The position numbers and the translations under genes were made by a program. From a virus (taxonomy: Duplodnaviria > Heunggongvirae > Uroviricota > Caudoviricetes): 35,428 nt of DNA. How positions within the stretch are numbered: position 1 is the first letter of the stretch; each line of letters starts with the position of its first letter. This document shows, piece after piece, positions 24,165 through 27,591 of the stretch. The DNA is taken from the IMG/VR virus record IMGVR_UViG_2923360383_000002; one strand, 5' to 3'. Below the pieces are notes generated by a model. The model was not told the origin of the DNA and did not search any database. It saw only the letters and a program-made list of their open reading frames with translations.

Positions 24165-24380
24165 TTACTCTCCCCGTGCAGCCTTACGCTTGTCTTCTCT
24201 GATTTTGAAGTACAGATTTGTCAGATAAGTCAGGAAGCCCAGAACCAGACTCCCCAGTACACCAATCGCAGCCCACTGTGACGGACTGACCTGATCAAGC
24301 CACTGTAAAAACCAGTAGCCAGCACTGCCTGCGGAGGTGCCGTAGGCAATGCCCGTTGAAATTTTGTCCATGGATTTCAT
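24165..24380 (-). CDS. Pinholin, phage 21 S-type (class II holin with dual start)
   Basis: [63 protein letters not shown] is essentially the S21 sequence; GGAGGTG RBS. Confidence 0.9.
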
Positions 24381-24671
24381 AGCCTCACCTCCGCAAATAA
24401 CGGATGGCGTAGTTTTACACTGAGAAATGAAAGGGATTTGAAAAGAAAAAACCGCAAAAACGGGCGAAACGATATATACAGTAAGGAAAGCACTCTATCC
24501 AACAAACCACCCACAGTTAATCGGAATAAAAGCAGAGTGCTTATGAATGATCGCCTGCCCGAAGGTTAGTATTTCTGCACAGCAATTTTGCAAAAAAAGC
24601 GATCATTCATAACTTAAACGTCTTTCAGTCACTCCGGGATTTCCCATCATCGCAGACTGAAAGACTCTAAC

Positions 24672-24746
<75 letters not shown>

Positions 24747-24749
24747 ATA

Positions 24750-24825
<76 letters not shown>

Positions 24826-24827
24826 AC

Positions 24828-24904
24828 TGGACCGCCACCGGGGACTCGAACCTCGCACACTCAACTTAAAGGGTTGACGCTCTTTCCTGATGAGCTAGTG
24901 GCGG
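24828..24904 (-). tRNA. tRNA-like gene; anticodon UUU (Lys) by position, with atypical C33 and mismatches - possibly divergent or a pseudo-tRNA
   Basis: 7-bp acceptor stem (CCGCCAC/GTGGCGG), TTCGAGT T-loop, CCA end; anticodon loop CCTTTAA; T-stem has one mismatch. Confidence 0.45.
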
Positions 24905-24905
24905 T

Positions 24906-24981
24906 TGGTGGCCCTTGCTGGATTTGAACCAGCGACCTGGCGATTATGAGTCGCTCGCTCTCACCACTGAGCTAAAGGGCC
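24906..24981 (-). tRNA. tRNA with CAU anticodon, ileX-like (Ile2 if lysidine-modified, otherwise Met)
   Basis: GGCCCTTTAGCTCAGTGGTGAGAGCGAGCGACTCATAATCGCCAGGTCGCTGGTTCAAATCCAGCAAGGGCCACCA; resembles E. coli ileX more than elongator Met. Confidence 0.8.
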
Positions 24982-24990
24982 GGGCGCAGG

Positions 24991-25019
24991 ATAATAACGT
25001 TACGAAATCAATGTTGCAA
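24991..25019 (-). promoter_or_regulatory. Candidate sigma70 promoter for the tRNA cluster
   Basis: On the minus strand, TTGCAA, 17-nt spacer, TATTAT, ending about 9 nt before the first tRNA 5' end. Confidence 0.4.
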
Positions 25020-25277
25020 GCATTCAAAAATCACCTGGTTAAAAATCACCCTTACCTCCTCCACCAGCGCATTCACCATAATTATCAGAGATAAACGACA
25101 AAAAAACGCACGGCAGCGGTTTTAAGCTGTATGCCGAAGTGACCACTCTTAACACAATAAACAAGAAAATGCGGACCGCGTTAGTGATTTTATCTTCTTT
25201 TCTAGGTAAATTAAGTCTCTACAAATTTAGCCATCAACAAGATATGCATTAATCAATGAGGCATAGCAAGGACCGTC

Positions 25278-26159
25278 ATGGAGAAGTCAACTTCCTTTAA
25301 GGTGTTTTATGACGCCAATGATAAAGAATTGTCAAAGCATGCTATTGACGCTGAAACACTTGGTAAATCAATACTTTCCATGACAACTCTTATTAATAAA
25401 GCTGATAGCTTGTTAAATGAGGGCAACAAATCTGTAAAAATTTTAGTCACTGCCCCCATCCAGAAAGGATCTGTGGGTATTGCATATACTGTAGTGCAAC
25501 TCCTACCGCATGCAATTGACGTTCTGCAAACTATCGGGATTGTTGGAACTGTGGGCGCAACAGCTCATGCCACCGCTTTATCGTTAATAAGACAATTAGG
25601 CTCAAAAAAAGTTGTTTCGATTACCAAAAAAGCAGGAACAGATAAGGCTGTTCTTGAATTTGAAGATGGTGAGATTGAATGCTCATCAGCAGTTGCAACC
25701 TTGGTAACTGAGCCAACAATTCGGGATGCGTTGATTTCTGTTGTTCAGGCTCCTTTAGATGGTAAAGACTCTCCCATTTTTAAAATTGTAGATGAGAATG
25801 ATAAAGTTTTGCTCAAGCTTGAAGGAGAGCAAACTGAAGAGATTAAACCCCTTCCCAGAGGGACGCTTTTGACCAAAACAGTTGAAGAAAAAGAGGTTAA
25901 TGTAAAATTTACCCAAGTTAACTTTCATAGTGAGAAGGGGTGGAGGATGGACTACAACCAAGATGAGCACTCCGTACTACTTACAGACTATGAGTTTTTA
26001 GCTAAAGTAAGGCAAGCAGAGGGAACGATCACTAGTGAAGATATGTTTTCTGTGCTTCTAGAAACAACACGTACAACTTCCGCACGAGGACAAACAGAAA
26101 AGTATGTTATCAAGAAAGTACTTCGTCATCGCGTGATTCAAGGGAAAAAATTGATCTAG
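25278..26159 (+). CDS. Hypothetical soluble protein (293 aa), first gene of the plus-strand cargo operon
   Basis: ATG with AAGGA RBS; AT-rich codon usage unlike flanking phage genes; no Walker or other motif recognised. Confidence 0.6.
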   Translation: MEKSTSFKVFYDANDKELSKHAIDAETLGKSILSMTTLINKADSLLNEGNKSVKILVTAPIQKGSVGIAYTVVQLLPHAIDVLQTIGIVGTVGATAHATALSLIRQLGSKKVVSITKKAGTDKAVLEFEDGEIECSSAVATLVTEPTIRDALISVVQAPLDGKDSPIFKIVDENDKVLLKLEGEQTEEIKPLPRGTLLTKTVEEKEVNVKFTQVNFHSEKGWRMDYNQDEHSVLLTDYEFLAKVRQAEGTITSEDMFSVLLETTRTTSARGQTEKYVIKKVLRHRVIQGKKLI

Positions 26160-26174
26160 CTTTGGTAGAAACTA

Positions 26175-26438
26175 ATGATTCAGCAACAGCTTTTACAAAT
26201 CGTTTTTTGGTTGGGGGTGCTTGTAAGTCTCCCGACCTTCTATCGCTTTGTTTATGCTGGTTCCGCGTTGTTGTGGCGTAAAATTTTTCCTACAAAAATC
26301 GTAGAACTAAGGTTTTACAGTGCTGAACGCATGCTTGAAAAAACGATTACTATCCACTTAGATGCTAAAGATGGAAAGAAGATCGTTGAGCTAATTGATG
26401 ATGCAACCGCGCACAGGCAGTCAAATAATGAGCGGTGA
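26175..26438 (+). CDS. Hypothetical small membrane protein (87 aa, one N-terminal hydrophobic helix)
   Basis: Starts 16 nt after the ORF A stop; hydrophobic segment LLQIVFWLGVLVSLPTFY. Confidence 0.5.
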   Translation: MIQQQLLQIVFWLGVLVSLPTFYRFVYAGSALLWRKIFPTKIVELRFYSAERMLEKTITIHLDAKDGKKIVELIDDATAHRQSNNER

Positions 26439-26826
26439 TAAAAAAAGCATTTTAAGTAGTAATTCTGGTCTAACAACAGGCGGGATTGGCGCAGTTCTAA
26501 CTACATTGGTACCACTATTGGCGCCTGACCCTAATAGTGAATGGAGAGCTTTTTTGTATGCCCTCGCCCCATTAGTGTCAGCAATGCTAACCTACATTAT
26601 GTTGTATGTTATCAATCGACATGGACTTGAGTCTCCAGCCGAAGCCGCCCTAAGAAATCGCCTTGAGCGAGATTTAAAAGGTATTGATGAGCAACTGAAA
26701 AGCCCTCATCTAAGCGAGAAATTTAAAGCTGAGCTTATTGCTGATCGGGAAGAAACTGTTAGAAAGATTGTTAACATTGGTAAGAATGTAGAAGTTTTAC
26801 CTATTGAAGTTACTAAAGAAGAATAA
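26398..26826 (+). CDS. Hypothetical membrane protein (about 132-142 aa, two hydrophobic helices plus charged C-terminal region)
   Basis: Overlaps the ORF B 3' end (alternative starts ATG 26398 or ATG 26428); hydrophobic segments GIGAVLTTLVPLLAP and AFLYALAPLVSAMLTYIMLYVI. Confidence 0.5.
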   Translation: MMQPRTGSQIMSGDKKSILSSNSGLTTGGIGAVLTTLVPLLAPDPNSEWRAFLYALAPLVSAMLTYIMLYVINRHGLESPAEAALRNRLERDLKGIDEQLKSPHLSEKFKAELIADREETVRKIVNIGKNVEVLPIEVTKEE

Positions 26827-26845
26827 AACGGCCCTTAGGCCGTTT
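26825..26845. terminator. Hairpin between the convergent plus-strand operon and the Q gene (likely bidirectional terminator)
   Basis: AAAACGGCC-ctta-GGCCGTTT; T-rich on the minus-strand side (TTTTATTCTTC). Confidence 0.55.
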
Positions 26846-26861
26846 AGAATATTCAAGAGGT

Positions 26862-27230
26862 TCACAATTCCATCTCGAGACGAACATCAAGCATTGAGAG
26901 ACAGCCATCGATAAAGCCCTCTGCCATCTGGATCTCTATCCGTATCAATTTCTCATCTTTTTTACGTGCCTTTGCAATCTTCCGTTTCGAGATGCCGTAT
27001 AGGTAATGAGCCACAATCAGAGAATGTTCGTACGGTTTTTTCTTTTTTAGTAAAGCAAGGCAGCTCTCAATGATAAGAGCGTCATCGTCTGTACAAGAAA
27101 TTCGTGTTTTACTTATCTGCGGCATAAGCCCCTTAAAACCAGCTGCTATAGGTGAATAGTCTACCCCAGAGCTATCACTCGCAGCCCATGCCCCCCACCG
27201 CTCAAGAACCATCTGAATATCACGCACCAT
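26862..27230 (-). CDS. Late-gene antiterminator Q (DLP12 QuuD-like family)
   Basis: MVRDIQMVLERWGAWAA...IAAGFKGL...AEGFIDGCLSMLDVRLEMEL resembles the QuuD-type Q protein as I recall it. Confidence 0.8.
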   Translation of the reverse strand: MVRDIQMVLERWGAWAASDSSGVDYSPIAAGFKGLMPQISKTRISCTDDDALIIESCLALLKKKKPYEHSLIVAHYLYGISKRKIAKARKKDEKLIRIEIQMAEGFIDGCLSMLDVRLEMEL

Positions 27231-27591
27231 CTTTACTATCTCTTATTACGTAAATCTTCACGCCCAACCGACCACCAGGAACGAGCTGACCGCGCACAAT
27301 ATTGATTTCATCAAACTGCTCGTCGTCTATAAGTAGTCCGGCATGCGTCAGCGCATCCAGTGGTGCTTTCAGGATATTGTCCAGGTCACGACGGCGCTTA
27401 TCCGGTGGCTCTGCAATCACCTTTATCGCCAGCCTTCCGGACAGGTTTGATTTTAACCGCTGCCGGCGAACAATTAGCGCCACATCACGGCGATAACGCT
27501 CACCGACTTTTGATACAAAATATGTGTTGCCACGACGTCGCCAGTAAGTATTCACCGTCGGCGGATAAGGCAAAACAAACTCAATACGCAT
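27220..27591 (-). CDS. rusA: Holliday junction resolvase RusA
   Basis: RusA-like motifs (RRRDLDNILKAPLDALTHAGLLIDDEQ); start taken at ATG 27591 with AAGAGG RBS. Confidence 0.85.
   Translation of the reverse strand: MRIEFVLPYPPTVNTYWRRRGNTYFVSKVGERYRRDVALIVRRQRLKSNLSGRLAIKVIAEPPDKRRRDLDNILKAPLDALTHAGLLIDDEQFDEINIVRGQLVPGGRLGVKIYVIRDSKDGA

Follow-up and report, generated by a model that had tools for sequence, protein, structure and literature searches.

Payne et al. (bioRxiv 10.1101/2024.01.29.577857) describe 145 PDC systems, which are predicted phage-defence candidates in PADLOC; their choice rested on relatives that occur inside BREX, DISARM or type I RM systems. One of them, PDC-S42, consists of a single gene. 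A second point of comparison is the lambda RexAB pair, whose genes lie behind the CI repressor in the immunity region. A third is provided by genes carried antisense in one particular slot of prophages, i.e. nmpC/lc in phage 434, SfIV_49/48, Stx2a_1447_24/23 and cdtI orf54/53. Most of these cargos encode one soluble protein together with one membrane protein, and their GC content is low (0.32–0.42).

The stretch of DNA analysed here (termed the window) is a Caudoviricetes sequence of 35,428 nt, IMG/VR record IMGVR_UViG_2923360383_000002. It contains three linked plus-strand genes, termed A, B and C, which show similarities to all of the above. The A protein matches the main model of PDC-S42 (PDLC05015) from end to end. 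However, this model is centred on a clade in which A occurs alone, whereas here A is followed by B and C. The PDC candidates were also chosen on the basis of embedding in defence systems, whereas the locus in the window is a prophage locus, situated between the antiterminator Q gene and the tRNA/lysis genes, with no BREX, DISARM or RM around the module.

In common with RexAB, the module combines a cytoplasmic protein of ~280–290 aa with small inner-membrane protein(s), and it is found in a lambdoid prophage outside of the lytic operons. It differs in having two membrane proteins (with one and two transmembrane segments) where RexAB has a single one with four, and in its position at the Q end of the prophage rather than in the immunity region beside cI. 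With the antisense genes of other phages the module shares the slot, the orientation, the low GC content and mostly the soluble/membrane composition, but there is no sequence relationship to A, B or C.

Layout of the locus

A first-pass annotation had described a three-gene plus-strand operon at this position, and a re-examination of the open reading frames, strands, GC content, hairpin and conservation bears this out. As it had stated, the open reading frame map places the three genes between Q and the tRNA/lysis genes and antisense to all genes that flank them. The flanking genes (holin, four tRNAs, Q, RusA and DUF968 in the open reading frame/annotation map of the window) are all on the minus strand. 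The features of the locus are as follows.

25100..25196, minus strand: conserved element, left boundary of the slot; AAAATCACTAACGCGGTCCGCA...TGTTAAGAGTGGTCAC...hairpin and T-run; the same in seven loci
25268..25272, plus strand: AAGGA ribosome-binding site of gene A, read in the sequence 5 nt 5′ of the ATG at 25278
25278..26159, plus strand: gene A, open reading frame of 293 aa; divergent member of PDC-S42, NF053583 “LAPAL” and phrog_3243
26175..26438, plus strand: gene B, open reading frame of 87 aa with one predicted N-terminal transmembrane segment
26428..26826, plus strand: gene C, open reading frame of 132 aa from the ATG at 26428 (the start used by PGAP)
26826..26845, no strand assigned: hairpin between the convergent genes C and Q, AAACGGCC-TAAG-GGCCGTTT, from terminator scoring
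26862..27230, minus strand: antiterminator Q gene, PF06530 type, 122 aa (open reading frame/annotation); right boundary of the slot, convergent with C

The mechanical open reading frame of gene C begins at TTG 26395, which would give 143 aa. With the ATG at 26428 as the start, B and C share 11 nt, in agreement with the overlap reported earlier, and the operon's own ribosome-binding site is present as claimed. The module had also been judged AT-rich by eye; the computed GC content is 0.398, compared with 0.509 for the window and 0.48–0.57 for the flanks. The operon ends, as had been proposed, at a hairpin common to the convergent Q gene. Terminator scoring shows this hairpin to be a good intrinsic terminator toward Q, with a weaker T-run on the plus strand and thus a weaker terminator in the direction of the module. 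A search of the plus strand ahead of gene A gave no consensus sigma-70 promoter, and a comparison of loci shows that the stretch upstream of A differs between module variants. An Rfam scan of positions 24300–27300 detected tRNAs only.

Gene A and its family

HMM searches show the match of A to PDLC05015 (E-value = 4.1e-27, 93.4 bits) to span residues 5–286 of 293 and model positions 4–291 of 302. A also matches the NCBIfam model NF053583 “LAPAL” with 190.1 bits, well above the curated cutoff of 60 (residues 7–285, model positions 1–291 of 292), and phrog_3243 of the PHROGs collection (E-value = 3e-58). The first-pass annotation recognised no family for any of the three proteins. This stands for B and C, for which NCBIfam, PHROGs and PADLOC gave no match, but not for A, and because A is already catalogued in all three collections the novelty of the module is less than had been assumed. 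Pfam searches with the three proteins yielded no significant match, and a search of the literature for PDC-S42, the LAPAL motif or the WP accessions of the three genes found no publication.

The A family is large, with 2,197 clusters at 50% identity, and every branch tested is matched by the PADLOC PDC-S42 model. Members of the A-alone clade score 282–344 bits with this model, versus 93–179 bits for A proteins that belong to a trio. The match of A to NF053583 is full-length and above cutoff, but A is without the literal LAPAL motif. This motif sits at residues 23–28 in distant members, and the residues of A aligned to it are IDAETL.

A is predicted to be a cytoplasmic alpha/beta protein. It had been called soluble, which agrees with the predicted location, but A is not plainly soluble because a Gly-rich hydrophobic stretch at approximately residues 76–105 is conserved throughout the family. 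The predicted structure also displays an OB-like C-terminal domain (approximately residues 198–285). Fold searches found no global structural relative of A, and the A profile gave no match among PDB sequences. The BFVD structure search yielded two uncharacterised proteins, one from Mycobacterium phage Pipsqueaks and the other a DUF6575 protein. No catalytic motif is evident among the family-wide invariant residues, which fits a sensor or adaptor role for A; the diverse A alignment (A2) is too divergent for pattern scanning. Family and structure searches showed no transporter, enzyme or adhesin signature. An O-antigen modification module of the gtrABC type was considered and dropped after the Pfam scan, since this gave no glycosyltransferase or other family signature in A.

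The similarity of the module to RexAB does not extend to sequence, as had been noted before. The A profile (59 sequences) aligned to lambda RexA with an hhalign probability of 0.3%, and the C profile to RexB with 0.1%. RexA was absent from the PDB sequence and fold search results for A, and the Rex models of PADLOC gave no match. Homology to Rex was therefore rejected on the hhalign and PADLOC results.

The membrane proteins B and C

Transmembrane helices had been proposed for both B and C, and topology prediction gives one segment in B and two in C. By hydropathy, B is predicted to have a single hydrophobic N-terminal segment (approximately residues 1–26) followed by a short cytoplasmic tail. 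C has two hydrophobic segments by hydropathy, and its AF2 model (pLDDT 74.9) is a transmembrane hairpin formed by H17–31 and H38–65, followed by charged helices, H70–90 and H97–115, that are predicted to be cytoplasmic. The charge pattern of C, with K5/K6 at the N-terminus and an Arg-rich tail, predicts an N-in/C-in orientation.

Two predicted transmembrane helices, a positive N-terminus and a charged cytoplasmic C-terminal region are features that C has in common with class II holins. C is, however, nearly twice as long, has a two-helix cytoplasmic domain and, in the window, is encoded outside of the lysis cassette. There, the tRNA array and the promoter-like element lie between the module and the holin gene, to which the module is antisense. 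Matches of C to holin families were sub-threshold only (E-value = 0.03–0.18, in six of 22 C members). The best were to Phage_holin_9 (E-value = 0.16–0.18, score 12 with a cutoff of 27 bits) and phrog_565 (E-value = 0.028). Alignment of C with the class II holin of the same prophage gave an hhalign probability of 1.2%. Thus, despite its holin-like topology, C is not a member of a holin family.

Conservation of the trio and its genomic contexts

All 59 IMG/VR loci, and 12 of 13 other contexts, keep the order A, B, C, even where A is only ~27%–31% identical. The same loci (59/59 and 12/13) have a B-like open reading frame of 78–95 aa with an N-terminal hydrophobic segment after A. Sizes are also maintained: A is ~290 aa, B ~80 aa with one transmembrane segment, and C ~130 aa with two. 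The three genes are conserved across Enterobacterales with dN values of 0.11–0.69 and saturated dS. This conservation, together with the presence of the trio in all 59 viral loci, shows that these are real genes and not chance open reading frames, and as judged from the sequence comparisons all three are under purifying selection. A occurs alone only in a clade of 20%–25% identity, whose members sit among metabolic genes. A scan of genome contigs gave two loci only.

A Q homolog directly follows C in 51 of the 59 viral loci; in the same number, the trio runs antisense and precedes the probable late promoter described below. The first-pass annotation had placed the operon in a Q-lysis cargo hotspot, but it is not specific to this slot: the trio is also found on the same strand as holin-endolysin genes and upstream of them, in an early region, and on Pseudomonas megaplasmids. 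In three loci (L036, L088, L092) it lies directly upstream of, and on the same strand as, genes for Holin_2-3 and an SLT endolysin. In another (L024), a trio with an A homolog of 34% identity is found 27 bp downstream of a CI-like S24 repressor gene, on the same strand and with a divergent Cro; this recalls the position of rexAB behind the CI repressor. Other trios are found near a Mob_Pre relaxase and in an integrase/primase island. One distant trio abuts a gene for a NACHT protein of >1,900 aa, and another adjoins a Mu-like protein I gene.

Among E. coli prophages the module is rare and variable. The variant in the window is found in 20 of 5,426 complete E. coli genomes, and the three variants together in ~1.3% of them; many carriers are APEC or clinical E. 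coli. Prophages with a near-identical backbone have, in place of the module, a variant of 29% identity, other cargo or a deletion, or they have a different Q and no cargo. Conversely, the module is 99.9% identical between prophages whose flanks are only ~91% identical. In one prophage (L029) the whole module has been removed by a clean microhomology-mediated deletion, and this locus was rejected as an ancestral empty site in favour of a secondary deletion. The earlier proposal of variable accessory cargo is therefore upheld, and the comparison of the Q-S interval that had been suggested with it shows that related prophages lack or swap the module, which is not a core gene set. With presence/absence polymorphism among related phages and a deviant base composition, the module is a horizontally exchanged accessory operon (“moron”).

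The slot between Q and the late genes

The conserved element at positions 25100–25196 is invariant across seven loci with different cargos and was found in 74 phages. It precedes the late genes in Stx2a phage 1447 (including stx2) and in phage cdtI. There is no Rfam match for the element. From this arrangement it is probably the late promoter of this Q family, together with its leader and tR′. The trio is upstream of this promoter/leader/terminator-like element and thus outside of the late operon.

The position had initially been likened to that of stx. This analogy is imprecise: in Stx2a phage 1447, stx is downstream of the element and in the sense orientation, whereas the module is upstream and antisense. 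The slot is instead that of the nmpC porin in phage 434. Prophages with a Q that is 82%–88% identical hold unrelated low-GC cargos in this slot, mostly soluble/membrane pairs. A PADLOC search with six alternative-cargo proteins and the 339-aa Ecol_224 protein gave no match.

Predicted function and alternative explanations

The best explanation is that the lysogen expresses the module as a membrane-associated system of anti-phage exclusion or abortive infection, a predicted function to which we give a little short of an even chance. Several observations suggest defence: the PDC-S42 match, the fixed trio, purifying selection, the repressor, NACHT and megaplasmid contexts, the location in a cargo hotspot, the 99.9% identity between divergent backbones, and the rarity of the module. 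The first-pass annotation had proposed a candidate novel defence/accessory module. Accessory status is borne out, and the defence proposal gains independent support from the place of A in PDC-S42 and from the distant trio behind a CI-type repressor, like rexAB. The lead is good but not unprecedented, because the family of the largest protein is already listed as candidate anti-phage defence.

Lying antisense between Q and what is probably the late promoter, the module is outside of the Q-dependent late transcript. Carried by prophages and other mobile elements, it would be expressed in the lysogen. A would be a non-enzymatic cytoplasmic sensor or adaptor, with its OB-like C-terminal domain and Gly-rich hydrophobic hairpin, and would act at the inner membrane with B (one transmembrane segment) and C (two segments and a charged helical tail). 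The cytoplasmic tails of B and C may dock A. On detection of a superinfecting phage the complex could compromise the membrane, i.e. abortive infection that is functionally RexAB-like, or alternatively it could block a membrane step of infection.

The prophage-encoded inner-membrane proteins are open to other explanations. SieA, Sim and HK97 gp15 are small prophage-encoded inner-membrane exclusion proteins, and the module may likewise block DNA entry at the inner membrane without cell death, as in classical superinfection exclusion and not abortive infection. Expression predicted to be independent of the late genes agrees with this. However, the known Sie proteins act alone, whereas here there is a conserved 290-aa cytoplasmic partner that is able to occur alone, and the occurrence of the A family in many hosts, and on elements other than phages, speaks against a block that is specific for a receptor or for injection; we consider this explanation unlikely. 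An appreciable, though still small, probability is given to lysogenic conversion at the cell envelope that is unrelated to defence (stress tolerance, transport or host interaction), as with the nmpC/lc porin. The porin occupies the same slot in phage 434, two of the three products are membrane proteins, the A-alone clade lies among metabolic genes, and many carriers are APEC or clinical strains. Against it, the A family was singled out on account of relatives inside defence systems; trios are found in a repressor operon, next to a NACHT gene and in satellite-like islands; and none of the searches gave the signature of a transporter, enzyme or adhesin. It is very improbable that the module stabilises the prophage as an addiction or toxin-antitoxin-like system: a small membrane protein could be toxic and mobile elements carry the module, but it has been cleanly lost in L029 and swapped out in relatives, and it has three components with fixed stoichiometry and, by Pfam, no antitoxin-like DNA-binding protein.

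A lysis-associated accessory of the carrying phage, in which C (with B) would be a holin, antiholin or lysis timer and A a regulator, has a slim chance of being correct. The class-II-holin-like layout of C, its weak holin matches, the three loci with the trio directly upstream of Holin_2-3 and endolysin genes, and a distance of ~1 kb or less between the module and the lysis cassette in enteric prophages all agree with such a role. But where the trio is antisense and ahead of the probable late promoter, as in 51 viral loci, it would not share a transcript with the lysis genes; trios also occur on megaplasmids, in a repressor operon and with a NACHT gene next to them; the hhalign probability for C and the holin of its own prophage is only 1.2%; and related prophages lack the module, one by clean deletion. 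The NCBIfam name of the A family, “LAPAL motif-containing putative phage structural protein”, would make A a virion structural protein. Apart from the name, only the single distant trio beside a Mu-like protein I gene points this way. A tblastn search found no homolog of A in 50,697 phage records. The structure searches with A matched no capsid or tail fold. In the window, A is antisense to the genes on either side, both late (tRNA/lysis) and early (Q, RusA, DUF968), and away from the capsid/tail genes. It is coupled to two membrane proteins, and is found on megaplasmids, beside the NACHT gene and in the repressor operon. A virion role for A was therefore rejected and has next to no probability.

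A bolder form of the anti-phage reading is doubtful, and is given here as a conjecture. A, B and C may constitute a new three-component abortive-infection system in which the OB-like domain of A senses a product of phage replication, for example ssDNA or an SSB-like protein, and its Gly-zipper-like hairpin together with the B/C pair forms or opens a membrane lesion. The slot between Q and the late promoter, including that of Stx2a phages, would then be a previously unrecognised hotspot of unrelated exclusion modules, each a soluble sensor with a membrane effector.

If the function is defence, the module would give a mechanism to a large catalogued family found in prophages, satellite-like islands and megaplasmids, and what PADLOC lists as a “single-gene” candidate would exist in phages as a trio, with membrane partners dedicated to it. 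The Q-to-late-promoter slot, used in antisense by Stx2a, cdtI and SfIV phages as well, would become a site to mine for further Rex-like soluble/membrane modules. The module is 1.55 kb in length, small enough for direct cloning.

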